From Nemertoderma westbladi (Eukaryota; Animalia; Xenacoelomorpha): a stretch of 64,000 nt of DNA. Within the stretch, counting starts at the first letter, position 1. The number at the start of each line of letters is the position of its first letter. The notes below the pieces were generated by a model. The model worked only from the letters and a program-made list of their open reading frames with translations. It had not been told where the DNA came from and did not search any database. Shown piece by piece: positions 6,126 through 38,808 of this stretch. The translations under genes were made by a program, and so were the position numbers. The stretch covers positions 1 through 64,000 of the forward strand of contig JAUCBJ010003036.1 of assembly GCA_032718475.1 (NCBI GenBank). Reading direction: 5' to 3'.

Positions 6126-6354
6126 TGTTCATGGATTATTTATTCTAACCGCCCATGTAAAAAAATACCAGGATTTAACTTTTTGGTCGAATTTTTATTG
6201 GAATTTTATATATGGAGATTTTTTATTTTTTTAAATTTATATTTATTAAGTGTTTTATAGCGTTTATTTCTTTCTTATAACCTGTACATATACTTATTCG
6301 TTTATTGTTTTGGTTAGATTCGGCCCTTCTGTAACCTGTGTTTTTAGTGAAAAC

Positions 6355-8945
6355 CTGGTATTCTTCACATGGGGGTAACTGCAAAGTGAAATATAACGGC
6401 AGAAAGTCTGGTATTATTCACATGGGGTAACTTCAAAGTGAAATATAACGGCAGAAAGTCTGGTATTATTCACATGGGGTAACTGCAAAGTGAAATATAA
6501 CGGCAGAAAGTCTGGTATTCTTCACATGGGGGTGACTGCAAAGTGAAATATAACGGCAGAAAGTCTGGTATTCTTCACATGGGGGTGACTGCAAAGTGAA
6601 ATATAACGGCAGAAAGTCTGGTATTATTCACATGGGGTAACTGCAAAGTGAAATATAACGGCAGAAAGTCTGGTATTATTCACATGGGGTAACTGCAAAG
6701 TGAAATATAACGGCAGAAAGTCTGGTATTCTTCACATGGGGGTGACTGCAAAGTAAAATATAACGGCAGAAAGTCTGGTATTATTCACATGGGGTAACTG
6801 CAAAGTGGAATATAACGGCAGAAAGTCTGGTATTCTTCACATGGGGGTAACTGCAAAGTGAAATATAACGGCAGAAAGTCTGGTATTCTTCACATGGGGT
6901 AACTGCAAAGTGAAATATAACGGCAGAAAGTCTGGTATTCTTCACATGGGGGTGACTGCAAAGTAAAATATAACGGCAGAAAGTCTGGTATTCTTCACAT
7001 GGGGGTAACTGCAAAGTGAAATATAACGGCAGAAAGTCTGGTATTCTTCACATGGGGGTAACTGCAAAGTGGAATATAACGGCAGAAAGTCTGGTATTCT
7101 TCACATGGGGTAACTGCAAAGTGAAATATAACGGCAGAAAGTCTGGTATTCTTCACATGGGGGTAACTGCAAAGTAAAATATAACGGCAGAAAGTCTGGT
7201 ATTATTCACATGGGGTAACTGCAAAGTGAAATATAACGGCAGAAAGTCTGGTATTATTCACATGGGGGTAACTGCAAAGTGAAATATAACGGCAGAAAGT
7301 CTGGTATTCTTCACATGGGGGTGACTGCAAAGTAAAATATAACGGCAGAAAGTCTGGTATTATTCACATGGGGTAACTGCAAAGTGGAATATAACGGCAG
7401 AAAGTCTGGTATTCTTCACATGAGGGTAACTGCAAAGTGATATAACGGCAGAAAGTCTGGTATTATTCACATGGGGTAACTGCAAAGTGAAATATAACGG
7501 CAGGAAGTCTGGTATTATTCACATGGGGGTAACTGCAAAGTGAAATATAACGGCAGAAAGTCTGGTATTATTCACATGGGGTAACTGCAAAGTGGAATAT
7601 AACGGCAGAAAGTCTGGTATTCTTCACATGAGGGTAACTGCAAAGTGAAATATAACGGCAGAAAGTCTGGTATTATTCACATGGGGTAACTGCAAAGTGA
7701 AATATAACGGCAGGAAGTCTGGTATTCTTCACGTGGGGGTAACTGCAAAGTGAAATATAACGGGAGAAAGTCCGGTATTCTTCACATGGGGGTAACTGCA
7801 AAGTGAAATATAACGGCAGAAAGTCTGGTATTCTTCACGTGGGGGTAACTGCAAAGTGAAATATAACGGCAGAAAGTCTGGTATTCTTCACATGAGGGTA
7901 ACTGCAAAGTGAAATATAACGGCAGAAAGTCTGGTATTCTTCACGTGGGGGTAACTGCAAAGTGAAATATAACGGGAGAAAGTCCGGTATTCTTCACATG
8001 GGGGTAACTGCAAAGTGAAATATAACGGCAGAAAGTCTGGTATTCTTCACATGAGGGTAACTGCAAAGTGAAATATAACAGCAGAGAGTCTGGTATTCTT
8101 CACATGGGGGTAACTGCAAAGTGAAATATAACGGCAGAAAGTCCGGTATTCTTCACATGAGGGTAACTGCAAAGTGAAATATAACGGCAGAAAGTCTGGT
8201 ATTCTTCACATGAGGGTAACTGCAAAGTGAAATATAACGGCAGAAAGTCTGGTATTCTTCACGTGGGTGTAACTGCAAAGTGAAATATAACGGCAGAAAG
8301 TCTGGTATTCTTCACGTGGGGGTAACTGCAAAGTGAAATATAACGGCAGGAAGTCTGGTATTCTTCACATGGGGGTAACTGCAAAGTGAAATATAACGGC
8401 AGAAAGTCTGGTATTCTTCACATGAGGGTAACTGCAAAGTGAAATATAACGGCAGAAAGTCTGGTATTCTTCACATGGGGGTAACTGCAAAGTGAAATAT
8501 AACGGCAGAAAGTCTGGTATTCTTCACGTGGGGGTAACTGCAAAGTGAAATATAACGGCAGAAAGTCTGGTATTATTCACATGGGGTAACTGCAAAGTGA
8601 AATATAACGGCAGGAAGTCTGGTATTCTTCACATGGGAGTAACTGCAAAGTGAAATATACCGGCAGAAAGTCTGGTATTCTTCACATGGGGGTAACTGCA
8701 AAGTGAAATATAACGGCAGAAAGTCTGGTATTCTTCACATGGGAGTAACTGCAAAGTGAAATATAACGGCAGAAAGTCTGGTATTATTCACATGGGGTAA
8801 CTGCAAAGTGAAATATAACGGCAGAAAGTCTGGTATTCTTCACATGGGAGTAACTGCAAAGTGAAATATAACGGCAGAAAGTCTGGTATTCTTCACATGA
8901 GGGTAACTGCAAAGTGAAATATAATGGCAGAAAGTCTGGTATTCA
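6355..8945. repeat. Tandem satellite, 52-53 bp unit, ~49 copies
   Basis: Unit CTGGTATTCTTCACATGGGGGTAACTGCAAAGTGAAATATAACGGCAGAAAGT repeated head to tail with few variants and no spacers. Confidence 0.97.
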
Positions 8946-13489: not shown

Positions 13490-13639
13490 CTCATCAGACA
13501 TGTACTCTATAAACCTAACTACTATGAACATTAGTACAGGTGTACTCATCAGACTTATTTATCTATGTTAGTACGTTTGTACTCATCGGACGTACGTAAT
13601 TATATTTTATTTTTATTATTGTTATATTTTGTGTGGGAA

Positions 13640-15056
13640 GGATGTATAGCCCTCATTCCCACCCCCCTCAGTACAATTTATTGGACGACTCAACAACCTT
13701 AGGGCGATTCTTATTATATTCTGAGGTCTTCTTATCATTCGCCCTTGTCTCCTTGTCAATCCTGACTCCATCAGATCTGACCTTCCCCTCTTCTCCAGTC
13801 TCTGATCCAACCTTCCCGTTACCTCACAGAATTCTTCATCGTCTTTAGTGGTAGAATACCACCCTTCATCTTGTCGTCACTTGGTGGCAGAATGCCACCC
13901 TTCATCTTATCATCACTTGGTGGCAGAATGCCGCCCTTCATCTCATCGTCACTGGTACATTCCACCTCTGCTGGCCTCCTCCTCAATATGTGCGCCGGCA
14001 TTAAAGCCCCCGATGACCCTTGGTCATCACTTGGTACGCATAATGGCTTACCATTTAATGCCCCCTCGCACTCTGCCAGCCACGTGTTCAACACATCTCT
14101 TCTAACTTCCCCGTTTTCATCATCCTTCATCATCAGTTCTTCTCCCTTTGGATCGACCTTCTTATATTTCTTCCTTTTCCTCCTTTTCTTCTTATTCTAT
14201 CCCCCTGGTATCAGTATACTCATCAATTGGATCAGTGTCTCTTCTGGATATCTCTCCAGATATCTTGCTGTCCACACTTCCCCATCCTCGTACCGATACT
14301 CGCTAGGAACGTCTGTGTTCCATCCCATTGCTCCTCCGCCCACTCTCTTGCTGTTGCTTCTCGTCCTGTTTTCTCTATCGATGGTATTTCCCTGGACTCA
14401 TCCTCCACCCTTTCCACTATGCGTGGTTCCAGATCCATACCCGCCCCCGACTCCTGATATCCTTCCCCACTGCTTCTTATATGGGACCTCCCCATCGCCT
14501 GTCTTCGACTTCTGCTCTATGTCCCCAAAGGTACCAGACAGCATGTATCCAGATGTTTTGGGTGTGTGGAATGGAATGTTGGACTTAATGGGCCCAGTAA
14601 CCATCCATCCAAATGGCGTTAGGATCGCCACTGGGTCTCACTCCTTATCGTTCCCGAATATCATCTCATGGGCTGTCGGGCAATCCATCCCAACTATTAG
14701 AGATACGTTTGGCACATTGAGATTTGGTGTCATCAGGTCAATCGAGACCAGGTGCTGATATTGCTCGACTTCAATCATCGTCGGCCACCTGGTGTTGATG
14801 TTTATGGATTGAGTAATTCGTATAGGGTCTATAGTTGCTCCATAGTTGGAATCTGGATTTACAGCCCCTATCCGACACCTTCCTGTTCTCATTGGAAGAA
14901 TTTCATCCTTGGCGGATATGGTGGTGACCGCCATCTTACTCAACCTCGTTTTTAGTTGTAGCCTATCTGCTATCCAGTTTTCTGTCAATGTGAATGCTAC
15001 CCCACTGTTGATCAACATCAGTGTTGTTACTGATCACCCATTCTCTCCCATCATCC
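13640..15056 (-). pseudogene. BEL/Pao aspartic protease and integrase C-terminal remnants; RT and RNase H absent
   Basis: LINSG (for LIDSG), VSLIVGMD, AILTPFGWMVTGP, then LNTWLAECEGALNGKPL...ALMPAHIL, resembling the BEL integrase LAEVEAILNSRPL...LTPAHFL motif. Confidence 0.75.
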
Positions 15057-16174
15057 TTACTGGCACCACTCCCAGTAACACTGTTCCTCGCTTCTTAAAT
15101 TTCCCAGTACTTGTAGCCTCCAATGGCCTCCAATCTTATTGGTCTCAGCGTACTTCGGTGGATGCTCTCGACACCTATCCTTCCTATGTCCTCCTACTGT
15201 GCATCTGTGGCATAATAAGCTAATCGATCTTCCTTCTGCAATGCCTGCCACTGGTTGCAGTCGATGGTCTTATGCATCCCATTTCTATGCAGCTGACACT
15301 TGTAGTTTGGATTATAATGCTCTCTGTATAGCGATTCGCATATTTCGTCCAGGTCCAACTCAGATGGTTTATTGTTTTGGTTGAATATGCCCGCACCAGG
15401 GGTGTTGTTTCCTCTATAGCTAATACAGTTGTTCTTTGGACTTGTAGTCCCCTGAGTAGCCGCATATGGTAGCGATTGTCTTACTTTCTGAAGTGCGCTT
15501 GCTGTGCTATGTTCTGGTTTAGGTTGATTATATTCAACTTTCGGTGTTTTCCCGAGACTGTCTTCACTGTAAACTGGATCCGTTATTAATTCCGCCTCAT
15601 AAGTAAGAAAGTTCGACATTTCTTCCAACCCTGGCTCTGCACCGTTCTTCTCTCGAGTAGAGAAAGCGATCTTTCTCCATTTATTCCTCAACCATATGGT
15701 AGTGCCTGCGCTATTGTCATGATGTTGTTTGAAGCATTAAGTTCGTATGGTGCTTCTAGCATCTTCAAGAATTTCAATGCTTTCTCTATCCTGGTTACAA
15801 AAGCTTTGATACTGACAGGGTTATCCGCTAGTCCACCCACCTGATGTTATTCCATTTAAGGTATGTCGGTTGATCTTCGCCGGATGGCCAAATTCCCTAT
15901 CCAAGGCTCTCCATGCTGCTGTAAAACCTCCTTCGTTTCCTTGGTATTGCCTTACAATATCATAGGCTGGCTCTCCTGTATAAACTTGTAAGTACTTAAG
16001 GCACTCCGCTTGTGTCAAATTCTTTGTAAGAATTTTGTTGCTGTACATCCTCCGGAACTGCAGATATTCTTCCGGCTTACTACCATCAAACTTGAAAGGC
16101 TCCATGGGTGGTAGCTTTATTCTAGTTTTTGGCGCGTTGATGAGTGTTGCCATTCCCAACGCCTTAATTTCCAT
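15057..16174 (-). pseudogene. gag: BEL/Pao gag remnant (capsid-like region plus zinc knuckles)
   Basis: KLPPMEPFKFDG, ECLKYLQVYTGEPAYDIV, ALDREFG, NKWRK...FLTYEAELITDPVYS, CQLHRNGMHKTIDC and LCHRCTVGGHRKDRC; contains stops and frameshifts. Confidence 0.8.
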
Positions 16175-17976
16175 CGCATTCGACGGTACGGATGCAGGTT
16201 CTTTACATGCTGACTATGCTTCGCCTCTTGGGTTCGTCGACTTTCCTTGTGTAGGATATATCATTGGGGGCAATGGTCCCCTCCATATCTCTGAGTCGCA
16301 TGATTTGTTTAGATCTGAGGGGGTCACAATTTTTATTTTACTTTGCTGTATGTATTGTGGATACAGTGTATTACCCTGCCCCCCCCCCCCCCCCCCCCAC
16401 CGGTGTTATATTCTGCACTGGGGTTGATGTCATTATATTGGGACCCATACACTCATCTGCAATAACCCCCCCCCCCCCCCCCCTTTCCCCTGCGTTATAG
16501 TGATGCTGGGCTGCAGGTACTGGTATAGGCCTAACAGGTTCATGCATACTTATTGGTATGTAAGCCGCAACTTGCGGATCTAAACCAGGCATTCATGTTA
16601 CCCTATCACCTACACTATCTCTTCCACACATAGCCTACAGTATGTTCAGTATGGCCTATATTATGTCCTGCTGTCTGAATGTGGTCCTCCGGACCGAATT
16701 CTAATCTTCTCGAATATTCCGAGAACTCCTCCCTATGACTACCATATCCTCGATCCTGCCGTAACTACGTTCTGAAGGGAAGTTTCCCTTCGATCCCTTA
16801 TTCTCTCAGCTTCTTCATTGCGGTATACGGTATACTCTATACCCCTCTTCCGGTGTGTATTACACATCGACAAGCTGTGTTCCTTCGGGGTGACGGCAAT
16901 CTCCCGAAGCACAACCCCACCGGCTCTCTCCCTCCACTTCAACTATCAACGGTTCGCTGTCCATCCTATCCTGACATCTCTGGATACCCGTAGCAACACT
17001 CCATCTCTTATCCCTATCGGCCCCCTCACATCCTTTACTTCCGGCGTTATATCTACATTCATGAGACCTCGCATCGACTTCCTGGATGAACCCTACCGTT
17101 CTCCTTCTGTCTTCTGAATGGGTCCAATGTTCCCTCATTTGGTAATTTACGGCATGAACGCTTCTTCCCCTACCGGTTGTATGGCCTCGTAGATATTCGC
17201 TGACCCTCTATTCTCCCCCGTCATTGGGAGCCCTGGTTCACTTGACTCACCGGATGCATTATCCACTGACATCTGTGGGGCACTTATTGCCCCCCCCCCC
17301 CCCCTATCGTCGCTAACTGGTTGGGTGGGGTGCCCGTAGCCAACCCCACCCATCACTTCTGGTTGCCCCTCTATCTCCACTTCCCCCACACTCTCCTCTA
17401 GTTGACATGTTGCCTCTATCTCCTTTTTGTTCGTTCTCCTGCGTCTCCCTCTGCGTTTCCACATGGCCTTCTAGGCCACCACTAGGCAAATTGTTTATTT
17501 CATTAGCATTTATATTAATTATACCGTCATTACTTTTATCGTGATTACTTATTATATTATTATTTAAATTATTTTCTTCACTTTTATTATTTAAGTTATC
17601 TATCGCATTATTATTTAAATCATTTGAATTACTTACTGTACCAGTATTAACATTATTGTTCATTAAAACACTATTTCCTGTAAGAAAGGTATTTAAATTA
17701 AATTATATTAATTATATAAATTATATTTTTTATTATTATTATTATTTAATATTATTATCGACTACGGTATTATTAATATTAACATTCCCACCAAACGTAA
17801 TGTCATTACCCCCCCCCCCCCCCCTCATCCGTCCGGTTACACCAGTCTTGTGTTTTCCATCCAGTCCCAGTAAGTGGGGAGTTAACAAAGGTTTCCATGA
17901 CCTCTGGTTCCTCATAAATACTTCCTGAACCAACCTCACTCTCTGATAAACCCAGTTTTGCCAGAACGATACGGGA

Positions 17977-18366
17977 TGGAGTATCCCGGACATTATCTAC
18001 TACCAGTTATAACCCACCATTACTTATTATATTGTGATATTGTGTATTGGTGTTGGGTTGTTATGATTGAACTGACTTATCCTATTTTATATGATATAAC
18101 CTACGCATAGCTACTATAATAATCTACGCGTAGCTGCTATAATACCTACAGCAGTACTGCACAGCTGCAGTACCGGTATGCTTTACTGATTACTGAACTA
18201 CAGACAGAGCAGCAGAGGTATCTGACTGTCTGAGAACTACTGACCAATAATTATGGAAGTGTAATTAATAATAACCTACGCATTGCCCAGAGATATTATA
18301 TTATTATATTTTATGACACTGGCGTTCTTTTTACTTTTAATATAATGTAAAGTTAAGAACGATACA
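17977..18366 (+). repeat. Element D 5' LTR
   Basis: TGGAGTATC...AGAACGATACA; near-identical to 22722-23111. Confidence 0.92.
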
Positions 18367-18479
18367 TGGCGCAGTTATATTTCGGTAGCGACGTTCGCTA
18401 GCTGGAACCTATTATACGGAACTCAACACTGCAACCGGTAGGCCTACACGGATAGGGGTACCGGCAGTTGGATTAAACA

Positions 18480-19400
18480 ATGGCTACCGTTAGTGGCAAA
18501 CCCAACTTGGACGACACGACCGAGTTGGAGGAGGATGACGTGGTGATTATGGATCACGCATCCCTCTTGCAGCATTGCAAAAATGTGAATATCCATGCGA
18601 ATCCAAAGGATTCAACTATTTACCTGCGGCGTAAGTTACTCCGTTACATTGAGGGAGACTATACACCTGCAGCACAGACCCAGGGTACAATAGATCTCGT
18701 ACAACTCCTCGAGCGTCTCGAGATACAACGCCATGCGGATGACGAGGAATGCGAAGAACGCAGACGCGAGGAACCCGAGGAGTTTATCCGCTTCTTCAAC
18801 TGTAACCCAGCTGCCCCAACACAGGGAACCGGTGGGCGCCCACAACACAATGCCCCTATCGTAAAACTCCAGGTCCGCACACCGGATAAACTGGAGCAGA
18901 ACATAAAGCTGGCTATATTCCAGCACTGGCGTACTGCCTGGCAGAATTACCAGACGATAACGCGCTTAATGGATAAATCTAGAGAGGAGCAGGTGGCGAC
19001 CTTCTTTGCGTACTGTAATACGGAGCTACTAACAGACTTACACCACCTAATGGGAATACCCGCGGATACCAATCTCGATGTTGAGGCAATCTTGGAATGG
19101 ATCCAGGAACATATAAGAGCCCAACACAACATACTGGTGGACCGGTACCAGCTACTTAAAAACCGGCAGTCTTTTAACGAATATTGGGTTAAACTCCAGG
19201 AAACTTTTGATGACGCCCAGATTAACGAAATGACACAGGAGGAATGGAAACTTACCCTCCTGGTCTGTGGTTTAACCGATGAGAAGACCAGAGAGGAGGT
19301 GTTTGCTAAGAAGCCGAGACTTGATCTTGCCGGCACTGTAGAATTTTGCCAGGCTAGAGAGGTCGCTGCAAAGCCGGCGGCAGCCACTGATTCCGGTAGA
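18480..19400 (+). pseudogene. gag: Mag-like gag, apparently missing the zinc-knuckle region
   Basis: FQHWRTAWQNY and TLLVCGLTDEKTREEVFAKKPRLDLAGTVEFCQARE; ORF 18480-19547 runs directly into the protease region. Confidence 0.75.
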
Positions 19401-19461
19401 CTTCTATCTTCCACCTCGCAGCACAGGAGGAACCAGATATTATCTGACCAACCTTGCGTGC

Positions 19462-22400
19462 GTGGCAGATACCGGTGCGCAGGTCACCCTCGCGAGCACC
19501 GAAATCCAGGAGGAATGGGACTTTCCAACTGGAGCAGTTTACCGTGACCCGGTTTACCAACTCACAGGCGCAAACGGTGATATAATTCAATGTGACAGCT
19601 GCATCGACCTGCAGTTGGTTACAGGAGGCCGCACCCACACGGAGTGTATATACCTCTGTCCGGATCTCAAATACAACACGATTTTCCTTTCCCTCAACGT
19701 CTGCATCGGACTCAACATTGTCCACCCCGATTTCCCCATACCACTACATCAGGTAGCCTCTACCGACAGAGAGGCGCGCCTTAGTGTTAGTCGCAAGATT
19801 AACACTCTACAGGACGATAACATAGAGGATGTCACGACCTCACATCAAACTAGTGCAGTAGAAACATATCACAGCCTGGAGAAAGAATCCATAATACAGG
19901 AATATCATGATGTTTTCGATTGCAATGGGCCCCTTAAAATTATGGTAAGCCCCCCCATGAAAATCAAACTCAAAGATGGAGCAACACCATTCTGCCTAAA
20001 TGCACCACGTGCCATTCCCATCCCGTATCGTGAGAAAGCAAAACTGGAGATTGAGGAAATGCTAAAAAAAGGGGATAATCGAGCGTATCGGGGATAGACC
20101 CGTGGCGTGGAGCCACCCTATTGTGGTTTGCGGTAAACCAGGGTGCCCAGGGGATATCCGAATGACGGTAGACCTGACCAAGCTAAACAGGCAGGTCAAG
20201 CGGACCATCCACACCGCACCACCACCCCACAATCTTTTATTTGATAGATCCCCTGGAGCAAAAATTTTCAGTGTCCTAGATGCAAAATCAGGATACTGGC
20301 AGGTTGCACTTGATGAAGAGTCGCGCGATTTTACAACTTTCATTACGCCTTGGGGCCGATACCGCTATTGCCGGGCTCCCATGGGCTTCATCACCTCCGG
20401 CGATAGCTAGAACTACCGTGGAGATCTCGCACTCAACGGGCTAGACCGAGTTAAAAAGATAGTCGATGATGTTCTCAAAGAAGATACTGACATCGACACC
20501 CACCGCACACACATCCGGGAGGTTCTAAACTGTTGTCGTGACAACAGTATCACTTTAAATCCAAATAAATTCCAGTAAGCCCAATCGAGCGTTCGCTTCG
20601 CCGGATACATACTCAGTGGCGAGGGAGACGAAGCGAGGCGAGGCAGACCCAAATAAAGTCCGCACTATCAGGGAATACCCCACGCCGCAGAATATCACCA
20701 ACCTTAGAAGCTTCATGGGGTTGGTGAACCAGTTGGGTTATTTTTCGAGTGGGATCTCAACCACTGCGTCTCCCCTGCGCGACCTACTACGAGCTCGCAA
20801 CACTTTTATATGGACTCCAAACTATGAGGATGCCTTCATCGCAACCAAGGCGGCGCTTGTGAGTCCTCCAATTCTAACACCATTCGACGCCAGCCTTACA
20901 ACGCGTCTTAAAACGGATGCGAGTCGCCTCCATGGGCTGGGATACGACTTACTCCAGCAACACGGCGAGGATTGGAGACTTGTGGCTTGCAGAAGCCGTT
21001 TCCTCACAGAGCCGGAGAGCTGCTATGCCACCATTGAATTGGAATGTATCGCAATTAAATATGCGATAACAAAGTGTCGCATTTACTTGGCCGGTCTGCC
21101 AACATTTTCCGTGGTTACGGACCACCGGCCACTATTAGCGATTTTTAACTCTTATAACCTGGACCAGGTTGAAAATAAAAAAATACAGAAACTGAAAGCA
21201 GACTTAAAGTCAACCTACCAGTTCACCCTTGCCTGGCAGAAGGGCAAGCGCCACCGGATTGCAGATGCACTCAGCCGGGCACCCCTCGATCCCGCACCGG
21301 GTGACCCAGACGAAGAGACACCTTTACTCATAGCGGCGATTTCGGAGACACTCTGTTTCGAAGAACAGGACAGTCCCACGGCAGCCAAAGATATACACGC
21401 CAATCCACCCGCGCCGGACTCGTGCGATGAACTCATCGAGGAGTTGCAACTCGCCGCACGAATAGACCCGGACTACATTAAACTCGTGGAATGTGTGAGA
21501 GCAGGAGACCTCACCACCCTTACATCGATATCCGCGCTAACCCCGTACCGATCCATCATCGACCAGTTATCCATTTATTTCGACTTGGTTTTATACGGTG
21601 ACAGACTGGTCGTACCAGCCGCCTGCCGCGATGACACCCTTCGTCGCCTACACACACCCCACTTGGGCATCACTCGAACTAAACAACGGGTGCGCAGCAC
21701 AGTATACTGGCCGGGTATTAACAGCAACATCGAACAAGTTGTTGAACAGTGCGATGCATGCCAGGGTCTACTCCCTAGTCTTCCTAAAGAGACCCTGATG
21801 GCAGACCCCATCCCTACGCGTCCATTCGAATCCACATCCTCAGATTTATTTACCCTAGCAGGTAAACATTTCCTTGTATACGCAGACAGGTTATCAGGTT
21901 ACCCACTAGTAACCGAATGGCGTAACGATCCGTAGGCACAGCAGTGTGTTAACGCACTATGGCAATATTTTGTGGACCTTGGAGTCCCAAACATCAGATG
22001 CACAGATGGTGGTCCACAATACGCCGCCGAGGTATCCCAGAAATTCCTTAAAGAATGGGGTGTACGCTGGGAGCCAAGCACCCCACATTTCCCAAGCAGT
22101 AATGGCCATGCGGAGGCCAGTGTAAAGCAAATAAAAATGCTGCTGAGAAAGGTGCGGATCCCGGATGTGCGCTCCGAGGAGTTTCAGCGGGGGCTACTCG
22201 AGCGCCAGAACACGCCTCGTTCTAATGGGCAATCCCCAAACGAGACCATTTTCGGACGTTGCTTGCGGGCTACACTCCCCGCTCACCACTCCCACTACAA
22301 ACAGCAGTGGCAGTCCAACGCGCAGCGACCCAGCGTAGCACCACCATCGCGCGTTACAACCACACCACTCATGATCTCCCACCTATCAAAGTTGGGGAGG

Positions 22401-22549
22401 CTGTACGAGTACAAGACTCCAAATCAAAACAATGGACACATATAGGCGTCGTTGTTGAGGCTGGCCGACAACGTGATTACAGAGTGAAGCTAGAATCGGG
22501 CCGAACCTGGTGGCACTACCGCCGTTTCCTACGCCACCACCATTCCTAA
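19462..22549 (+). pseudogene. pol: Mag-like pol with stops and frameshifts
   Basis: ADTGAQVT protease, LDAKSGYWQV and IVDD RT, TDASRLHGLG RNase H, H-H-C-C and SDLF...TDGG...SNGHAE integrase. Confidence 0.9.
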
Positions 22550-22721
22550 CCGCCAGGAGGTGCTCCCGAACCGCCTGCGGCGACGACACCTAAGGTCGAA
22601 GCTAAACCGGCTACCCGCACTGCTTACCCCCATGCGTCCAAGCACGCTAGCCCAGCACAGGGTGCACTGGGACCTCCCTGATCGAAACTGAAAGTAATTT
22701 CGATCGCAGAGGAAAGGGGGA

Positions 22722-23111
22722 TGGAGTATCCCGGACAATATCTACTACCAGTTATAACCCACCATTACTTATTATATTGTGATATTGTGTATTGGTGTTG
22801 GGTTGTTATGATTGAACTGACTTATCCTATTTTATATGATTTAACCTATGCGTAGCTACTATAATAATCTACGCGTAGCTGCTATAATACCTACAGCAGT
22901 ACTGCACAGCTGCAGTACTGGTATGCTTTACTGATTACTGAACTACAGACAGAGCAGCAGAGGTATCTGACTGTCTGATAACTACTGACCAATAATTATG
23001 GAAGTGTAATTAATAATAACCTACGCATTGCCCAGAGATATTATATTATTATATTTTATGACACTGGCGTTCTTTTTACTTTTAATATAATGTAAAGTTA
23101 AGAACGATACA
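22722..23111 (+). repeat. Element D 3' LTR
   Basis: Follows the PPT; matches the 5' LTR. Confidence 0.92.
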
Positions 23112-24725
23112 CTAATCGGTACTTTTGTTTCCCCTTTTACTGCATTAACCCCCTCAACCGGGTATGATTTCATCCCGCATTCTCTTACCAGCTCTCTCTC
23201 CCTGTCCTCTCTAATACTCTGGTCCGCAAATATATTTCCCTCCTCAATCCTCTCAGCTTTCCTCGTGTCTCGGTCTTTACACTCGTCCACCTCCATCTCA
23301 GCCCTTTCTACTTTCCTCGTGTCTTGCTCTTTATGGTCGTTCGCTTCTCTCGTATCCCGTTCTTTACGCTTATTCACTTCCCTCGCCTCCCGTTCTTTAC
23401 GCTCATTCACTTCATTCTCCCCTTGTTCTTTATGCTCACTCATTTCCTTCTCAACCCATTCAGCCTCCCTTGCGTCTCATTCTCTATACTCTCTTGCTAC
23501 TTTTTCAGCCTTCCCTTTGCACTCTCTCGCTAACTCCCTTTCCATGTCTAACAACGCAGTCCCTTCATCCAACTGTCTCTCTAACTCATTTTCGTCTAGC
23601 GCAACAACTATATCTAGCTGACATGCCAGAGCTATCTCTAGCACCCTTCTTGCTTTTGTGGAGGATGTGGCGGACTTTTTGGTTGCGACGGTTGCTTTCC
23701 CATCGCCTTCTGGTTCTACTACTTCTATCATATTTACTAGTGGCGCCCGTTGTTCTTCCGACGGATGACACCGAATCCTCCAGGTTTACCTCTGGTTTGG
23801 TGTCGTTCGAACCTGCCCATCCCACTAACTTAATCCCCCGCTACTAGATAAGGCCCTACGTACACCACACCAGATCTATCTCTAGCACCCTTCTTGCTTT
23901 TGCAGAGGATGTGGCAGATTTTTTGGTTGCGATGGTTGCTTTCCCGTCACCTTCCGGTTCTATACTTCTATCATATTTACTAGTGCCGCCCATTGTTCTT
24001 CCGATGGATGACACCGAATCCTCCAAGTTTACCTCGGGTTTGGTGTCGTTTGAACCCACCCATCCCACTAACTTAATCCCCCGCACATCTACTAGATAAG
24101 GCCCTACATACACAATACTGTACAGCATTATCTGTGATTGCAACAATTCACATAGTTCTGTGGCGACCTCCCTCGCCCTTTCATTCGCCAGTTCACCCTG
24201 TCCAGAAATGTGTATTGCACTCACCGAGTCGGTGCTCCTGTTTACCGGTGGTCCTGGCGTCCTTGAGTATCCTCCTTGTGGCATTGTATCCCCGTCGCAG
24301 GCGATCGCTCGTCCCGACATCATCCTCCTGAACTTCTTGACCCCTTTCCTTGTCTGGCGTCGCACCATTGGCCCCACCATTGCCGTTCTGGGGGGATGTC
24401 CGCCGCCTGTAGCCACTGGTTGGCTGGCGACTCCAGTGCTTCTCTATCTGCTCCCATCCCGTGTCGACTCGCGCTCCCATTCATCTTCTATCCGTCCACC
24501 TTCCTCCTCTCCAACCAGACTGTTGTCTCTTGGTAAATACAGTATGGTGGGCCAATAGCATCGAGTCGCCGCCTCCCTGATCATTGCGTCTCTGCCGCTT
24601 AGGGTGCGCAGCGGACTCCCTTCTCCACCAATCGAACTTTGGGGAGTTTGTTCGCTCATTGTGTTGGCGCTGGTGCTTGTTGTCGTCACAGATCTCATCG
24701 TAGGTTTTAAAGTCTGGTTTTAAAC

Positions 24726-25331
24726 TGTGATGGGATCCGAGTAGGCAAGGGATCCCAACTGGAGTGTGTTTTGAGTCGTATGGGGAATACGCATTGCTGC
24801 GTCCACTTAGTTACTGAAAGGCTGTTAAAGGGGCTGAAAGGCCAAAGGCCGATATAATAACTAAGTTTATATTATATGGTTATTGGTAATGTCAGATATA
24901 TGACTATCGGTAATACAGAACAATCAGTATAGCACAATAATAGCAGTAACAACAACGACGGTTTAAAACCGTTTGACTTCTACACTCAACATAGCCAACT
25001 GAACCACAATCAACAGAGTAACGGTTATATTTTGCATGGAAGATTACACACATTCCTAACTATGTTTGGCCTACCAATAAATGCGCGTAATTGATGGAAA
25101 GCTGCCCCACTATTGGCTGGTTTACTTCTTGGCCAATCCCTATTTTCCCCTGGCCCTATGCTGGCTTCCACTGAGATGTATTGGCATCTCTCTCTGGGTG
25201 ACAATGTATATTGCCTCGTTCCCTCTAGTATACACTATTGCGTTGGGCAATATTGCATATCTAATCGTGATTTGTAATCCAGGATTTCCCTATTTTCCAC
25301 TAGGTGGTGCAGCGGATTGGATCCACTAACA
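24726..25331 (-). repeat. Element A 5' LTR (606 bp)
   Basis: Minus strand TGTTAGTGGATCCAATCCGCT...ATCCCATCACA; termini homologous to the element B LTR (TGTTAGCTTATCCAATTCCGCT...ATCCCGTCACA). Confidence 0.82.
24998..25029 (-). promoter_or_regulatory. Putative TATA box plus Inr of LTR A
   Basis: Minus strand TATAA (25025-25029) and TCAGT (24998-25002); same 27-nt offset as in LTR B. Confidence 0.6.
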
Positions 25332-28231: not shown

Positions 28232-28869
28232 TTAAGGTTTGATTATTTAGAGCAGCAGTAGTTAAAGTACTCCTCTATGGGAGTCCATGCTGGACTCTAA
28301 CTGCTGAGGACACCAAATCTCTGGATGGCACATTCACAACAATGCTACGCCGGGTTCATTGTGTCAAGTACAATGCACACATCTCCAACCAGACACTATA
28401 TAACATTGGAGGTGTCTCATTGGTTCCCCCAAGCTTGACACTAGAACAAAATCGCCTCCGCTTTGCAGGACATTGCTTTCGCCGTGAGGACTAGCCAGTG
28501 CATAATCTTGTACTTTGGCAGCCTCATGGAGTGAATAAGCATGGTGGACAGCCCATGACTTTCTTGAGACGCATCTTAAAGGACACTGGCCTTGAAGATG
28601 CGGATAATCTAGCAAATATCATGGGTGATAGGGCGTTGTGGCGGTGCTATTTTGTCGATAAGCCGGCCCCATCATTCTTAAAAATGCAGCTGCAATGCAG
28701 CATGCCGATCCTAGTAGTAGTAGTAGTAGTAGACACTAGAACAAAATTGCCTCCGCTTTGCAGGACATTGCTTTCGCCGTGAGGAACAGCCAGTGCATAA
28801 TCTTGTACTTTGGTAGCCTCATGGAGTGAATAAGCATGGTGGACAGCCCATGACTTACTTGAGATGCAT
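28232..28869 (+). mobile_element. Second 3' fragment of the (GTA)n-tailed RTE-type LINE plus an internal re-copy
   Basis: 28232-28732 matches ~12963-13489 including the tail; 28733-28869 repeats 28439-28575. Confidence 0.9.
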
Positions 28870-28948
28870 AGGACACCATTCATGGGACACCAAATATAAT
28901 ACAGTCTTACGTGCAAAGTATGATGCATGAATCATACAAAGTATAATA

Positions 28949-29549
28949 CAGTCTCACGCTGCCCTACCCCACAGCCACAGTCTCACGCCGCCCTACCACA
29001 CAGCCACAGTCTCACACTGCCCTACCCCACAGCCACAGTCTCACGCCACCCTACCCCACAGCCACAGTCTCACGCCGCCCTACCCGACAGCCACAGTCTG
29101 ACGCCGCCCACAGCCACAGCCACAGTCTCAAGCTGCCCTACCCCACAGCCACAGTCTCACGCCACTATACCCCACAGCCAGAGTCTCACGCTGCCCCATC
29201 GCCCTACCTGCCGCCCTACCCCACAGCCACAGTCTCACACTGCCTTACCCCACAGACACAATCTCACGCCGCCCTACGTCACAGCCACAGTCGCACGCTG
29301 CCATAACTAACAGCCAGTCTCACGCCGCCCTACCCCACAGTCACAATCTCACGCCGCCCTACCCACCCCCTACCCCACAGCCACAATCTGATGCGGCCCT
29401 AACCCACAGCCACAGTCTCACGCCACCCTACCTGTCGCCATACCCCACAGCCACAGTCTCACACTGCCCTACCTGCCGCCCTACCCCACAGCCACAGTCT
29501 CACGCCAACCTACCCGCCGTACTACCACACAGCCACAGTCTCACACCGC
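28949..29549. repeat. 29-bp satellite, left arm
   Basis: Unit CCCTACCCCACAGCCACAGTCTCACGCCG with variants; continues at 48655 after the nested insertion. Confidence 0.95.
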
Positions 29550-29782
29550 TGTGGTGCACGGGCCGAAATGAGTTCTAGTTGAATAAGGCCCCCATGCAAC
29601 CAAGAAGAAAAGAAGATAGACAGATTTACAGATAAAGTATATCAGTATTGCAGTATGATATTCAAACAGGTTACAGCATTAGGTACAACAGCAGTTCTCA
29701 CATACCGGTAGGTAGGACTATATGTACCAATGGGTTAGGACCACACGACATATCATATATATCTCAATTTGAGTTCCCCACA
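29550..29782 (-). repeat. Element C 3' LTR
   Basis: TGTGG...CCACA; matches 48422-48654. Confidence 0.95.
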
Positions 29783-31162: not shown

Positions 31163-31688
31163 TGTGACGGGATCTACGGATCCCGGTTTATCGGTTGGGT
31201 TTTCTATCCAAGCGTCCCCGCCGTGTGTGAAAGGTAAAAGAGTTCTGGTGTTCGGTTATATGTATAAGGTATAATAGTCTGATATATATATAGTATAACA
31301 CAACAGGTAATATAAGTATGATGGCGGTAGCGGACGGTGACAGAAGTCCCCGTTCCACCCTACTGATCTGACTGAGTAAACTGAATGAATGATTACAGGT
31401 TACTGGTTATATTGCACGGTGGCCTTATTGCTCCTCAATCGATGCCTTGCCCCCCTCTGATTGGTTGATATCCCTGTTGGCACCCTTTGGAGTGTTTCCC
31501 TTCACTCCCTGTGTTCTCTCTCGGTTAGGGGTTTGGCCCCTGACCCTTATTGTGTGTGTCTCCTTTGGGGCCTATTGTCCCCGTTTACTGGGCTGACACG
31601 AGGTTGACTGGTAATCAACCTCGTGCTCCCAATATTGCTTTATGGCTCACTCTATGGGTTTGTGTTAGCGGAATTGGATAAGCTAACA
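31163..31688 (-). repeat. Element B 3' LTR
   Basis: Preceded on the minus strand by the PPT; matches 44847-45372. Confidence 0.93.
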
Positions 31689-32049
31689 CTCCCCCCCATG
31701 CTATCTTCCCGGTGAGAAGATAGCATCCAACTCAAGTGCGCTACAATTCCGCTGGATCCCGATCTATTATCGGGTGTGGGGTGGGTCTATTTTTTTTCGG
31801 AGTCGGCTTTCCAGGCCGCTCCCTATGGGTATGATGTCACTACCCTCTGGCGTCTCGTGTCGGGCCGATCGTGCGCTTCTTTCACACAATTTTTGTTTCC
31901 CCAACACTCTCACCATTCTACTCCAACTCTCGCATACCCCCGGACCTCCTCGTCCCACACTCTTCCTCTCACTTCTCCTCCCCCACACTTGAATTGCGCC
32001 CACGCTCTCTTCGCACTCCGCACTATTACTCCATCCCTCCTTGTCACTC

Positions 32050-33520
32050 CCTAAGGCTTTAATCTCTAATGCTACCCCTGTGCTATCATACTATCTACCT
32101 ACTGCTTACTAACTCTAACTATCTAACTAACTCTGCTAACTACTAACTCTTACTACTTCTAGCTCTAACTGAGAGCCTCTAACTTTCTACTGACTCTAAC
32201 TCTCTACTAAGTCTAACTAACTCCTACTAACTTTCTACTTCTACTAACTCTACTTGACTCCTCTGAGTCTACCAACTCTGCTAACTAGCTCTACTAACTC
32301 TACTCCACTAGCTCTGCTAACTCTACTCCACTAGCTCTGCTAACTCTACTAACTAGCTCTACTAACTCTACTCCACTCTTCTAACTACGTGGCGCTTGCG
32401 GTGCCCACAACCATTCTACTATCTGGCACCCTATGTGCCCTTCTACTACTCAACTACCTCTCTAACTTACTACCTGGCACCCTATGTGCCCGTCTCTACT
32501 CTTCTACTCTCTGGCACCCTATGTGCCCGTCTCTACTCCTCTACATCCCCTTTACGTCTCATCGCCTACACGTGACGCTCTGAGTGCCGGCAGAGCGGGT
32601 ACGTTAATTATGTGAACTACTACTGACTCTACTAACTCTCTTCTAACTCTACTAACTCCTTTTGTGCCCGGCACCTCTTGTGCCCGGCACCTTCTAACTC
32701 TACTAACTCTCTTCTAACTCTACTAACTCTTTTTGTGCCCGGCACCTCTTGTGCCCGGCACCTTCTAACTCTACTAACTCAACTAACTCTACTACTAACT
32801 CAACTAACTCTACTACTAACTCTTTTTGTGCCCGGCACCTCTTGTGCCCGGCACCCACCCTAATTAACATACCCTGCTCTTACATCAAACACGTCATCAC
32901 GCCCGTGCCCCACTAAGTTCAGCGCATTCCCTACTAACTCTAACTACGTGGCGCTTACGGTGCCCACAACCCTCTACTGCTACTACTAACACCCCTAACT
33001 AGCGGTACTACGTACCCTCTTACTACTCTTACTCTCTAACGGTACTGCGTACCCCTTAACTCCTATTCTCTAACGGTACTGCGTACCCTCTTACTACTCT
33101 TACTCTCTAACGGTACTGCGTACCCCTTAACTCCTATTCTCTAACGGTACTGCGTACCCTCTAACTCTTACTCTAACTAGCGGTACTTACGTACCCTCTA
33201 ACTCTAACTACCTAGCGGTACTTACGTACCCTCTAACTCTACTAGCTAGCGGTACAACGTACCCTCTTACTACTCTAGCTCTCTCTACTAGCTAGCGGTA
33301 CTACGTACCCTCTTACTCTTACTCTAACACTAACTGTCAGTGCTAACTGACTAACTAACTAACTCTGACTCTAGGTACTACGTACCTCCTAACTAACTCC
33401 TCTACTAACGGTACTACACGTACCCTCCTACTAACTCTTCTACTAACGGTACTACGTACCACCCTTTAACTAACTAACTAACTAACTCTTACTACCTAAC
33501 TTCTACCTACTCTATTATTT
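32050..33520. repeat. Low-complexity 3' region of element B (CTAACT/CTACT repeats with GGTAC..GTACC and GTGCCCGGCAC motifs)
   Basis: Seen directly. Confidence 0.85.
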
Positions 33521-34240
33521 AATTATTTTCTTATTTTAATTAAATAATCATTTTATATTTTGCGCGTGGGAAGGGCGTCTCGCCCTCATTCCCACCCCCC
33601 TCAGTCCAAAACTTTGGACGACTAAAAACTCTCACGTGCCCCTTCTTCCGGTAGGCACTCTCCTGCTGCCCTCCTATACGTCCTCTAACTCTTCGCCACA
33701 CTCTCTTCGGTGCTACCTTTGCTGGCCTCCCCCTTCGTATGTGCGCTGGCATTAAAGCCCTCGACGACCCCCGCTCGTCCCTCGGTATACGCGGTGTCTG
33801 CCCGTGCAATGCCCCCTCGCACTGTGTCCGTCCTGCGTGTGTATGCAACACGCCTCCTTCTACTTTCCCGACTCCCTTTTTTTTTCAATTTTCAATTTAT
33901 TTTTCCTTTCAACAATTTCCTATTTCAGTACAATCAATACAAACATTGGATGAAGGTGATGGTGATGACGAAGTAGCAGACAATAGCGAAGCTAGTATAG
34001 CCTGCTACTCCGACTGGAAATTGATGGGTTGGAGGTGGGGTGGGGGGGGGGGGGTGGGTGGGCGTGTCTGCTCCTCTAGAATTTGTCTGGTTTTTGAGCT
34101 TTATTGTATGAGATATAATTGATGGTCAGCCGAATAGTGTAGCAGTAGCATTCTGGGATAGAAGACTTTGAGAGGCAATAAATGGCAGCGACTATAATAA
34201 AAGATACGTGGTGAGATATAAAAAGTGGGCATGGGCCTAA

Positions 34241-37200
34241 CTACAGGGACATTAACAGGTGGTATTTATACGCTGACGAAAATGCTTTTTTTGATTTTGA
34301 GTGTTTTAATTGAGATGGTAGTGCGTTCCAAATTGAAGGGCCTTGATAATTCATGGAAGCTTTGGAGGAAGTTAGGCGGACCTTCGGAATAGAGAAACCA
34401 TCCGTAGTAGCAAGGCGAGTTGGATATCTGTGTACAGAGGAAATTTTGGTGAATAATGAGCCTAGAGTAGAATCAGGTTTAAATAAGTTAGCGTTTACAT
34501 CGTACATGAGGGATCCTACTTGGTGCTTATAGAGGAGGTCAATAGGTAGGATGCCGAGAGACTTATAGATAGGTTTAGAAGAAGCTCGGTAGTGCGAGAA
34601 AGTAATACAGCGGAGGAGTTTGTTTATTTTTATACGTAGGGGTTGTAGGGTATAAGAATGGGTTTTGCCCCAGAGTAGAATGCCATACAATAAATAGGGG
34701 TGTACAAGTGAAAAATATAGTTGGCGAAGTATACGAAGGGGAAATATGTGACGCAGTTTGTAGAATATTCCGGAGGTTCTAGAGATTTTAGACGTAATAT
34801 GTTTAATGTGAGATTTCCAGTTTAAGTTGTCATCTACTAGAACCCCTAGAAATTTAGAATGTGGTTTCCGAGTAATGGGGGAATGGTTAATTAGTATTGG
34901 GTCGGAGTGAGTATTAGGGTAATTAGAGTATATAGCATATTCAGTCTTAGATAGATTGAGAGATAGACGGTTGTCTGATAGCCAGTCCGCAATCTTAGAT
35001 AATTCAGAGTTAGTTATGGAGATTAAAGAGTCCAGATTAGGTTTAGCTATATGAAGAGTTGTGTCGTCAGCAAATAATGTTGAGATTAGTGAGGTAGCAT
35101 TGGGAAGGTCGTTGATATACAATAGGAATAGGATTGGCGAGATAGTGGCGCCTTGTGGGACACCACATGTAATAGGTAAACTAGAAGAATGGTGGTTACC
35201 GATAGAAACAAATTGGGTTCTAGAATCTAGGAAGCTTGAGAGTAGTTGCTGTGGTATTCCCCGGATACCATAGGAGTTTAGCTTAGAGGTTAGGATAGAG
35301 TGATCAATAGTGTCGAAAGCCTTTTTTAGATCTATATAGATAGCACTGGTGAATAGTTTTTGGTCTAAGTATTTGTGAATATTCTCTACAACGGATAGCA
35401 GAGCATGGGATGTTGTAGATTTAGGGCGAAAGCCGAATTGAGAATTAGACAATATGGAATATTTTTTTAGGTACGAGAGTAGTTGGTTATTAATTATGGA
35501 TTCGTACAGTTTGCTTATTACGGGTAGAAGAGAAATAGGTCGGTAGTTATTAGTGTCCGATGGGTCGGCACTCTTGAATACGGGAATGACTTTGGCCGAT
35601 TTAAGAGCCTTAGGGAAGAAGCCTTGAGTTATCGATAGGTTAATTAGGTGAGATAGATGAATAGATAGTAATTTAGCAGACAACTGTAATAGTTTAATGG
35701 GGAAACAATCATGAGATGCAGATTTGGGGTCTAATTGGAGGATTAGATATTCGACTTCGACAGGGGATGTCTCTACCAGTGAAAATGAGTTAGAGCGAGT
35801 GTGGTTAATGAAGCGTAGTGGGGAGCGGTTGGATTTAGGAATATCGTTGGCTAGTTTAGGTCCTATGGTAGTAAAGTGTAGGTTGAAAGCTTCAGCAATT
35901 TGCTTTGGGTCGGTGATGGTTTTGGCAGAATTATCAGTACGGATAGTTAGTTTTTTTGGAGTATTTAAATGTTTTGTTTTATTTAATGCAGAGTTTATAA
36001 TTATCCATGTTTTGCGTATGTTACCTGAGTTAGTTTCGAATTCACTAGAGTAATAGGCCTTCTCGGCAGCCCTTAGAGTAGAAGTTAATTTATTCCTATA
36101 GGTTTTGTAAGCAAGAGTATTAGCAGGGGTAGGATTCCTAATGTAAATTCTGTATAATTTGTTTTTATTAATGGAACTTTTAATAAGATTATCAGTCATC
36201 CAGGGTTTAGATAATTTTTTACGGGGTGGAATAGATTTCTTAGGTAAATGTTTGTCGCAGATAGAATTAAAATCGGAGTAGAAAGAGTCTAGTTTGTCCT
36301 TGTCGGCTATAGTTGGAGTTAGATAAGACCAAGATTTACTACTGGCTACGTCTCTCAGAAATTGATCCTTGTTAAAACGCGAGTAATCGAATATTGTGTG
36401 TGGAGCTGCTGGATGAAAGTAACAGGAGTACTTCTGGAGGATAACGAATGTAGCATAGTGATCAGAAGTGCCTATTTGTGAGTTAAAAGTACCGGCTGTA
36501 GTAGTATAATTAGTAATGTTTGTAAGTATATGATCTATAAGAGTTTCAGAGTGTATTGTCTGATCGGGTAGTTCATTATGAAAAACACGTGTAGGTTGGT
36601 TGATAAGTTGTATAAAACCGTAGGAATTAATGAGGTCAGTATAGGATTTGGAAGTAGTGGTTGATTTTAGAAGGTTAATATTAATATCTCCTGTGATAAT
36701 TACATCATAGTTGTTTTTAGTAAGTTCAGTTAGAGCTAGATCGAGTAATTCAAGAAAATCAGTAGGGAGTACAGAATGTCTACGGTAAATAGTGCCTAGA
36801 ATTAAGGGCTTGGCATTTTGTGGTCTTTTGATTTGCACCCATGAATTTTCAAGACCATTCATTTTTAAATCAGGACGTGGGGACACATCCAGGGATTCCT
36901 TGACATAGATAGCAGTACCACCACGATTTAATTTGTCGCCTGTTTTCCGGATGTCAAGATAAGGGGTGTGAAAACCGGGAAAAGTGATTTCATTTAAATT
37001 TGAGTTACTGTCTAAAAAAGTTTCTGAAAATGTGATGACATCGAATTTGGTAGTTAATGTTAAGAGAAAAGTTTCAATATCAGATTTATTTTTGGGTAAG
37101 CTGCGGGCATTAAGGTGGAATATTTTTAGGCCTGTATTATCTAAATTTTTAAAGTCGTTGTTAAAAGTATCTTCTGTAAAATAACCGTTATTTATATTAA

Positions 37201-37522
37201 GTGAGACTGTATTATTTTCGGGGTCAAGCTGGCTAAATGTTTGGTTTATAATGTTTGAGTCTGTGTCATCATTTATTTCAGGAGAAAAATAGTGAAAAAT
37301 GTCGCTGTCATTATTGTCTACAACGGAAAACGGAAATATATCGAAATTACAGAATATACAGTAGACATAGGACATTGGGGTGGCTTCTATCTCAGAGCTG
37401 GATTGGTAAGATCCACATTGTGCATGATATGAATGGCCGCAAATATTACATTTAAAGTAGTAGTCCGAGGAGATAAATTGAGAGAAGCAGAGCGCGCATG
37501 AAGGGGTAGAAGGTTCATGCAT
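34241..37522 (-). CDS. LINE ORF2: PHD finger, APE endonuclease, reverse transcriptase
   Basis: 1093-aa uninterrupted ORF: CALC..CNIC..HAQC..CIFC, HLNARSL, FSETFL, GDIN, SDHY, NYRPISLL, DLKKAFD, GVPQG, LFADDT. Confidence 0.95.
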   Translation of the reverse strand: MHEPSTPSCALCFSQFISSDYYFKCNICGHSYHAQCGSYQSSSEIEATPMSYVYCIFCNFDIFPFSVVDNNDSDIFHYFSPEINDDTDSNIINQTFSQLDPENNTVSLNINNGYFTEDTFNNDFKNLDNTGLKIFHLNARSLPKNKSDIETFLLTLTTKFDVITFSETFLDSNSNLNEITFPGFHTPYLDIRKTGDKLNRGGTAIYVKESLDVSPRPDLKMNGLENSWVQIKRPQNAKPLILGTIYRRHSVLPTDFLELLDLALTELTKNNYDVIITGDININLLKSTTTSKSYTDLINSYGFIQLINQPTRVFHNELPDQTIHSETLIDHILTNITNYTTTAGTFNSQIGTSDHYATFVILQKYSCYFHPAAPHTIFDYSRFNKDQFLRDVASSKSWSYLTPTIADKDKLDSFYSDFNSICDKHLPKKSIPPRKKLSKPWMTDNLIKSSINKNKLYRIYIRNPTPANTLAYKTYRNKLTSTLRAAEKAYYSSEFETNSGNIRKTWIIINSALNKTKHLNTPKKLTIRTDNSAKTITDPKQIAEAFNLHFTTIGPKLANDIPKSNRSPLRFINHTRSNSFSLVETSPVEVEYLILQLDPKSASHDCFPIKLLQLSAKLLSIHLSHLINLSITQGFFPKALKSAKVIPVFKSADPSDTNNYRPISLLPVISKLYESIINNQLLSYLKKYSILSNSQFGFRPKSTTSHALLSVVENIHKYLDQKLFTSAIYIDLKKAFDTIDHSILTSKLNSYGIRGIPQQLLSSFLDSRTQFVSIGNHHSSSLPITCGVPQGATISPILFLLYINDLPNATSLISTLFADDTTLHIAKPNLDSLISITNSELSKIADWLSDNRLSLNLSKTEYAIYSNYPNTHSDPILINHSPITRKPHSKFLGVLVDDNLNWKSHIKHITSKISRTSGIFYKLRHIFPLRILRQLYFSLVHPYLLYGILLWGKTHSYTLQPLRIKINKLLRCITFSHYRASSKPIYKSLGILPIDLLYKHQVGSLMYDVNANLFKPDSTLGSLFTKISSVHRYPTRLATTDGFSIPKVRLTSSKASMNYQGPSIWNALPSQLKHSKSKKAFSSAYKYHLLMSL

Positions 37523-38100
37523 GGGGCGTTTAGTAAAGCGGGTGAGATGACATGAAATGATAAGCGAATGATGTTAGTAGTAATATTAACCACTATAAAT
37601 CATGACGTATACACCTGACTGACATGACATAATATATCAATTAATTATAAGAAATATTTTAGAACTAACAGTAATATATATATATATATATGTGAATGGG
37701 ATAATCAAAAACGGTATTAATTTAAATTTGACTTTATCCGTAATAAAGGTTTTCATCAGAAAGAAAATAAAATAAAGTAAAGATTGGTCCGTTCAAAACT
37801 TAGAGATAGGGCTAGTGTTTTTCATTTGTGGCGATTATTATCTTTCTGTTAAATAGTCCAAATGGATCTATGGTTGAAACATATATAAGTTCAATTATTA
37901 TCCCTTCAAAAAAAAATTTTAACCTACGATACCGGTACGCTTACATAGAATAACAACAAATTAAAGGCTAACAGAGCCAATAGTACAGTAATAGCCCACG
38001 ACCAATACTGCAATAGGTGAAATGAAGCTGCAACAGTACAGTGGGTAGTACATGACATCGCTCAATACTGCATTCAGTGTCGAGTTAGGCTCGATTCGAA

Positions 38101-38808
38101 TTATCCAGAAGAGTTTGGGATTGGTGGGCTACGACGATCAATGGTTTTCCTAGTTGGTAGGGTAGTCAACGACTCAAGGTCGGATTGGTTCGCAATGCGC
38201 AGTGGTAAATCATTTTCTTTAATGCGAATCATAACAACTCCATTGAATGAATATACCGCTCGTATTTCGTGTTTACGTTGTAGCTCACGCGCTTTGTTGT
38301 ACAGCTCAGCCCGGGATGGAATTAGATGTTCCGTTACGTATAACGGATTTGGCAACGATTTTTTACTCCGGATAGCTTGTAGTCGAGAAGCGTGGCCTAG
38401 AAGGCGTATTATAATAGGGCGACATTTAACTTTACCGTCTCCAGCAGCCCTTTCCTTGATTTTCTTGCCTAGCCTGTGGAACACATCGATCATAGAAGGA
38501 GGAATTCCGAGTTTATTTGTAATATCAAAGACAGCGGAACGTTCTTCATCTGGGTTGGTGTTTTCTGGTACAGCATGAATTAAGATATCGTGACGGCGAG
38601 AGTACTGGGCCAACTCTTCGTTTTCTGCTTTTAGCTGCTTGTTTTCTTTGACTAGATGATCAATGTTTTTTATCATGCCGGGGATAATCTTTAGAGTATC
38701 TTTTATTGCCGCGACGTCGTCTTTGATACCACTGAGGGATTTCAATTCGCTTTTAAGGATTTCGAGAGAATCCAGAATATCGTCACCTACGTCTTGCCAT
38801 CGAGTCAT
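38101..38808 (-). CDS. LINE ORF1 (coiled coil plus RRM-type nucleic-acid binding)
   Basis: 235 aa with LAQYSRRHDILIHAVPE, FHRLGK, RPIIIRL and YVTEHL motifs typical of L1/CR1-type ORF1. Confidence 0.85.
   Translation of the reverse strand: MTRWQDVGDDILDSLEILKSELKSLSGIKDDVAAIKDTLKIIPGMIKNIDHLVKENKQLKAENEELAQYSRRHDILIHAVPENTNPDEERSAVFDITNKLGIPPSMIDVFHRLGKKIKERAAGDGKVKCRPIIIRLLGHASRLQAIRSKKSLPNPLYVTEHLIPSRAELYNKARELQRKHEIRAVYSFNGVVMIRIKENDLPLRIANQSDLESLTTLPTRKTIDRRSPPIPNSSG

Follow-up and report, generated by a model that had tools for sequence, protein, structure and literature searches.

The window, the 64-kb stretch of DNA analysed here, contains a full-length Ty3/gypsy element (17977-23111) whose two ends are joined to the host in different ways. 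The right end is exact at CA and is fused to the host with neither filler nor homology. The left end is extended by 12 nucleotides, composed of an 8-nt copy of the U5 tip and the GGGA of the polypurine tract (PPT), and 2 bp of the host are missing. Concerted integration by integrase leaves both ends exact and a 5-bp target site duplication (TSD), an arrangement that the window copy does not have. The insertion was probably made by one-ended integration, in which integrase would have joined one end and host repair the other, unprocessed end; we assign this reading a probability of roughly 0.6.

Both long terminal repeats (LTRs) of the element have a length of 390 bp, are in direct orientation, begin with TG and end with CA, and differ from each other at six positions (1.5%). 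The pol region has the gypsy order of reverse transcriptase, RNase H, and integrase, contains the Pfam domains RT_RNaseH, Integrase_H2C2, and rve, and is interrupted by stops and frame changes. The primer-binding site (PBS) TGGCGCAGT is presumably complementary to tRNA-Ser. A search for homologs yielded 211 passing sequences from 7997 scored candidates; the best 120 of these are at most about 52% identical to the element over most of the query and include several crustacean sequences and three named K02A2.6-like. None of the 67 pattern matches in a viral contig set is related to the element. The assignment of the element as Mag-like is plausible and is based on its size of 5.1 kb, PBS type, and the 5-bp TSDs of its relatives. 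PMC3286476 gives a PBS for tRNA-Ser or -Leu, a length of about 5 kb, and a 5-bp TSD for the Mag lineage. The window element shares with the Mag elements in the Culex table of that paper the length, short LTRs, gypsy domain order, and TGGCGCAG-type PBS, and its relatives share the 5-bp TSD; its 390-bp LTR is longer than the 119-304 bp listed there. The accessible text of PMC3587641, on Mag in crustaceans, holds nothing decisive for the window element.

Table 1. Features of the inserted element, its junctions, and the interrupted host element
Feature	Position	Strand	Description
Host, downstream half	13620..17964	-	large gypsy-like element in decay that received the insertion; colinear with relative 31163-45372 (blastn/tblastx)
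AG	17963..17964	+	only bases that the LTR tip (TAAG) has in common with the host (GCCAG); microhomology of 2 nt, chance 1 in 16
Filler AACGATAC	17965..17972	+	identical to LTR positions 382-389 (3' tip minus final A); present in X1 contig
GGGA	17973..17976	+	identical to last 4 nt of PPT; LTR-LTR identity reaches 4 nt upstream of the LTRs (17973/22718)
5' LTR	17977..18366	+	390 bp, TGGAG...GATACA
PBS TGGCGCAGT	18367..18375	+	adjoins CA of 5' LTR; same word adjoins CA in relatives
gag-like ORF	18477..19547	+	no Pfam match; lacks 416 nt seen in family contigs at 19373/19374
pol	19342..22445	+	protease-like, RT, RNase H, integrase (H2C2, rve); gypsy order; from Pfam, piecewise translations, and homologs
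PPT AGAGGAAAGGGGGA	22708..22721	+	adjoins 3' LTR
3' LTR	22722..23111	+	stops exactly at CA; same exit base in two other family copies, with different flanks
Host, upstream half	23112..25330	-	begins CTAAT; lacks the TT that paralogs have between the halves

The left junction consists of the 10-mer AGAACGATAC followed by GGGA and TGGAG, and the right junction of the same 10-mer followed by A and CTAATC. In the window, the 10-mer is located at 17963, 18356, and 23101 and nowhere else, and TGGAGTATC at 17977 and 22722 only. Reading from the host, the left junction is thus ordered as GCCAG, 8 nt of U5 tip, four PPT bases, and U3. The immediate flanks of the insertion, CGGGA and CTAAT, differ, so that there is no TSD. 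A search of the window bore out the junction words, positions, and mismatched flanks given in an earlier note on this DNA, and supports its proposal of a missing TSD and of PPT bases on an unprocessed end; the GGGA is likely to be the unprocessed U3 end. Assuming uniform base composition, eight nucleotides would match the LTR tip by chance with a probability of about 1.5e-5, and the four PPT bases would occur with one of about 0.004. The host flanks resemble neither the PBS (CTAAT compared with TGGCG) nor the PPT. The possibility that the boundary is shifted and that GATAC is a TSD was rejected, as GATACA is likewise the end of the 5' LTR and of two further copies.

Three public sequencing runs cover the region. 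Runs X1 and X2 are from one sample, and X3 is from a second sample and a second study. A further run, X5, has just short pieces, in 4 of 30 bins, and was left out of the evidence. The contigs compared with positions 22670-23200 number 34 in X1, 33 in X2, and 22 in X3, and the results refer to the matches listed. Family contigs cross from the PPT into TGGAGT ungapped (X2 record 9 up to 22745, X1 records 1-2 and X3 records 17-18 up to 22727), and X2 record 10 begins exactly at 22722, with no gap recorded at the LTR start. TGGAG is therefore the normal LTR start of the family and is not damaged. The earlier note had read this start as an attachment site disrupted by a 3-nt insertion, a claim contradicted by the TGGAGT shared throughout the family and by relative L021, which combines a TGGA-type end with a perfect 5-bp TSD. 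It is possible that an ancient 3-nt insertion into a TGTATC end predates the spread of the family. Family contigs are about 96-97% alike to the window copy, and the differences are dominated by CpG decay in the window copy. The 416 nt that the window copy lacks at the gag-pol boundary (19373-19374) are present in X2 and X3 family contigs. The family also includes a second LTR subtype (22728-23061), which has the same PPT, TGGAGT start, and GATACA end and a different interior, in which 170 nt are replaced by 135.

Relatives of the element were examined in the best 80 of 395 metagenome loci, eight of which have a PBS and both flanks readable; six of these eight belong to one family in one record series. 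Loci with one flank cut off were left out of the TSD count, as was L046, an opposite-strand element with a one-mismatch TSD. An exact 5-bp TSD is present in seven of the eight (L013, the outer LTR pair of L014, L015, L018, L019, L021, and L042). The terminal inverted repeats of the relatives are just 2-5 bp long, and at most one PPT base is retained in comparable relatives, compared with four in the window copy. The eighth relative, L011 (2600-7290), is intact and its LTRs are 99.4% identical, and it has neither a TSD nor filler; loss of the TSD hence has other causes too, which counts against one-ended integration. Locus L014 (895-7640) contains four LTR copies, one of them partial, and only the outer pair is flanked by the TSD.

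The host of the insertion, at about 13.6-25.3 kb on the minus strand, is colinear with its relative at 31163-45372 in the same window. Empty sites were identified by comparing positions 16500-24600 with contigs of other host copies that jump the insertion; these copies are paralogous and do not represent the orthologous allele, they are about 65-90% alike near the site, and both contigs with readable letters are from run X2. At the site, CCAG-TT-CTAA is found in both of these X2 contigs, which have depths of 187.4 and 74.5. In the first, 18 of the next 20 nucleotides match the right flank when compared by eye; the second has a bridge of exactly 6+2+26 letters. Two further joints that jump the insertion were among those listed, one in X1, X2, and X3 and the other in X1 and X3. 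The relative in the window reads GCCAG-TT-TTAGT, with 21 of 30 positions matching in the left anchor and a weak right placement, in which 9 of 20 match, as many as at two other offsets. Compared with the paralogs, the window insertion therefore lacks two host base pairs, TT, beside the joint of the right end. A normal insertion with the same right end would place TT-CTAAT ahead of the TG of the element.

The earlier note had interpreted the 10-mer AGAACGATAC as a 10-bp microhomology with the host. The 10-mer is absent from all three readable empty copies of the host family, which have only AG in common with it, and AACGATAC is therefore not host sequence; this absence is among the outcomes that the note had set as refuting its reading. 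Collapsing the insertion on the 10-mer was also claimed to restore the host peptide PISVSFWQNW, which is not in the conserved frame: the frame of the left flank conserved with the relative in the window is LAKLGLSESE..PLTGTG, with a local score of 97, compared with 54 for the WQNW.. frame and 49 for the remaining one. Alignment of the translated right flank (23112-23230) to the relative gives scores of 27-29 across all frames and so favours none of them. The host element contains a local 240-bp tandem duplication (23626-24113, 90%), and its family is high-copy, with a summed contig depth in the thousands.

One-ended integration could have produced the insertion as follows. RNase H would have mis-cut the plus-strand PPT primer, leaving a U3 end that integrase was unable to process. 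Integrase would have joined the intact U5 (3') CA end to the host in a single strand transfer. A free host 3' end near the U5 tip may then have paired with it through AG, with a 2-nt flap being trimmed, and may have copied the U5 tip as a template to its end, over 8 nt. The copied strand would finally have been ligated to the U3 end, still bearing the four PPT bases. A polymerase-theta-like repair route could account for these steps, and the direction of copying is unreadable from the product. The same product could also result from an end-to-end jump of reverse transcriptase or from ligation of one strand of both element ends, which the sequence cannot discriminate. Snap-back copying of the U3 GTATC was rejected as the source of the filler, as it accounts for 5 nt, compared with 8-10 nt for the U5 tip.

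The pattern at the locus fits one-ended integration in that the filler extends from the 2-nt homology as far as the LTR terminus, and in that the host has lost nothing beyond 2 nt beside the right joint. Several observations argue against it. The AG homology is at the level expected by chance, the terminal A of the LTR is absent from the filler, and the joint between the filler and GGGA is shaped exactly like the junction of a 2-LTR circle. Furthermore, the PBS adjoins CA in this clade, so that linear cDNA may have a blunt end there, and plain end-joining of such a molecule may yield the same right joint.

The left joint could instead be what is left of an LTR-LTR junction that had formed beforehand, an explanation that we consider unlikely. 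The substrate would have been a 2-LTR circle or an end-to-end cDNA dimer, or such a molecule would have recombined into a chromosomal LTR, and the upstream LTR except for 8-10 nt would have been lost together with the TSD, either at insertion or by later deletion at AG. A U5 tip minus one base, a PPT remnant, and a U3 start are the typical form of a circle junction (PMC9198661), and the GATAC|GGGA joint lacks homology, as after end ligation. Circles with two LTRs exist for fly gypsy-type elements, where they make up 6.4% of the circle reads from HMS-Beagle (bioRxiv 2022.09.25.509424), and deletions at tandem junctions are described as common (bioRxiv 158386). However, a single 2-LTR circle carries the 8-nt tip twice and the locus carries it three times, from which it follows that the tip must have been copied. 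At the position of the G in the left joint, the right end carries A, which requires an A-to-G change, a rare class in X1 (11, compared with 68 in the reverse direction), or a CpG G-to-A change, a common class (9 of 11 checked), combined with a stop exactly one base beyond the junction. Among 27 of the 40 listed rows of 228, where the family has G preceded by C, the window copy has A in 9 of 11 cases, and where the family has C followed by G, it has T in 10 of 16. Since CpG decay is common in the window copy, the A-G difference at the junctions is not decisive. Later deletion requires both breakpoints to be within 10 nt of unit boundaries. A tandem that arose through two insertions was rejected because the GGGA spacer differs from a TSD of CTAAT, a criterion taken from bioRxiv 158386, and recombination between copies at different sites because the flanks are colinear and 2 bp apart.

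It is improbable that a linear, unprocessed cDNA was captured at a double-strand break independently of integrase, with end-joining on both sides and templated filler on the left. Such an origin would explain the lack of a TSD, the small host deletion, the filler, and the unprocessed U3 end, and the U5 end could have been blunt at CA given the adjacent PBS. Nevertheless, the non-classical HERV-K insertions described in PMC10742618 lack both ends and the element here is complete. Similarly, integrase-independent insertions of Tf1 (PMC11042837) use host homology to the PBS or PPT and are mostly found at existing elements, whereas the host flanks here match neither, and a Tf1-type insertion was rejected by the same criterion. 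The earlier note had favoured integrase-independent insertion of a 2-LTR circle or cDNA; the topology of an LTR-LTR joint was retained from this proposal, and independence of integrase is disfavoured by the right end, which is exact at CA with neither filler nor homology.

The same note envisaged a crossover of a 2-LTR circle with a host site that already carried AGAACGATAC. The 10-mer on both sides of the element agrees with such an event, which is nonetheless highly improbable, given that the readable empty relatives share AG alone and that the collapsed peptide is off the conserved frame.

The junctions are real. The left joint is present in an X1 contig, which has 38 loose letters before 22718, the 30 readable ones being identical to window positions 17943-17972; among the matches listed, it was found in X1 only, in none of X2 or X3. 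The right junction was recovered with no differences in X1 record 6 (23082-23166), X2 record 14 (23084-23166), and X3 record 22 (23083-23200), thus in two samples and two studies. On the LTR side, these contigs have 30 letters in X1 and 28 in X2, compared with a bridging rule of 31, and 29 aligned and 21 unaligned letters in X3. The region is repeat-rich and X1 is possibly from the same sample as the window, yet an assembly artefact has hardly any probability in view of these contigs, as has a chimera of two copies from different sites, since the flanks on the two sides are halves of a single host element, colinear and separated by 2 bp.

One-ended integration has counterparts in retroviruses. 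In end mutants of ASLV, and in HIV-1 with integrase inhibitors or a weak integrase, integrase inserts the good end and host enzymes the bad end, where viral or host sequence is added, short homology is used, and host DNA is deleted or duplicated (PMC5041404). The window copy shares with these events one normal CA end, another end with an element-derived addition, short homology, and a host deletion, and the lack of a standard TSD. In contrast to them, it arose in nature, not in a laboratory infection, and is inherited as a retrotransposon copy within an invertebrate-type genome, the change is tiny (2 bp lost and 12 nt added), and the integrase step is putative. For wild-type XMRV, PMC2857682 describes one of 15 proviruses with a defective U3 end and an abnormal duplication. 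According to PMC9198661, a retained PPT renders HIV ends unfit for integration and is seen at HIV circle junctions. The window joint shares the head-to-tail order of U5 tip, PPT remnant, and U3 start with such junctions of HIV-1 (PMC9198661) and HMS-Beagle (bioRxiv 2022.09.25.509424). Unlike them, it is chromosomal, retains just 8 nt of the upstream LTR, and is accompanied by a third copy of the tip. With insertions of Tf1-INfs (PMC11042837) and non-classical HERV-K (PMC10742618), it has in common the lack of a TSD, the involvement of repair, and PPT bases at the cDNA end; it differs from them in lacking host homology to the PBS or PPT, in not being located at a pre-existing copy, and in being untruncated with an exact right end. 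A literature search returned no natural invertebrate example of one-ended insertion, which is weak evidence, most subscription journals being outside its coverage.

The window insertion is likely an inherited one-off accident of an ordinary gypsy element inside another repeat, a known rare event that involves no new mechanism. As a germ-line fossil resolved to single bases in an invertebrate-type genome, it suggests that an accident described from retrovirus laboratories also occurs in nature and that elements without a TSD are not always products of recombination. It also calls for caution, as repair filler, and not target homology, can account for short repeats on either side of an insertion. 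A single decayed copy within a repeat has no evident function, and the insertion would gain greater weight only if the whole family inserted by the one-ended route.

The PPT tail and LTR start (17973-17987 and 22718-22732) together make up an inverted repeat of 5 bp, GGGAT/ATCCC, whose loop is 5 nt long; the repeat is located exactly at the primer cleavage site. It is conceivable, though very unlikely, that this hairpin and the TGGAG start make mis-cleavage of the primer habitual, so that the family routinely spreads by one-ended integration and scars resembling circle junctions replace TSDs. If so, the family would be a natural, inherited model of insertion by integrase plus repair.

The gypsy-like element at 31163-45372, used as a control within the window, is 14.2 kb long and has 528-bp LTRs (99%), a 5-bp TSD (CTGAA) on both sides, and no TGG-type PBS directly after the 5' LTR. 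Its long 5' region contains ORF-like stretches with no Pfam matches (42901-44805). The element lies inside another gypsy element and in turn harbours one of APE-RT type (L2/CR1-like), at about 34.2-38.9 kb. Satellites are located at 6300-8900, 28800-29550, and 48500-64000, and comprise a 53-bp array and a 29/41-bp satellite with higher-order repeats of about 2.1 kb.
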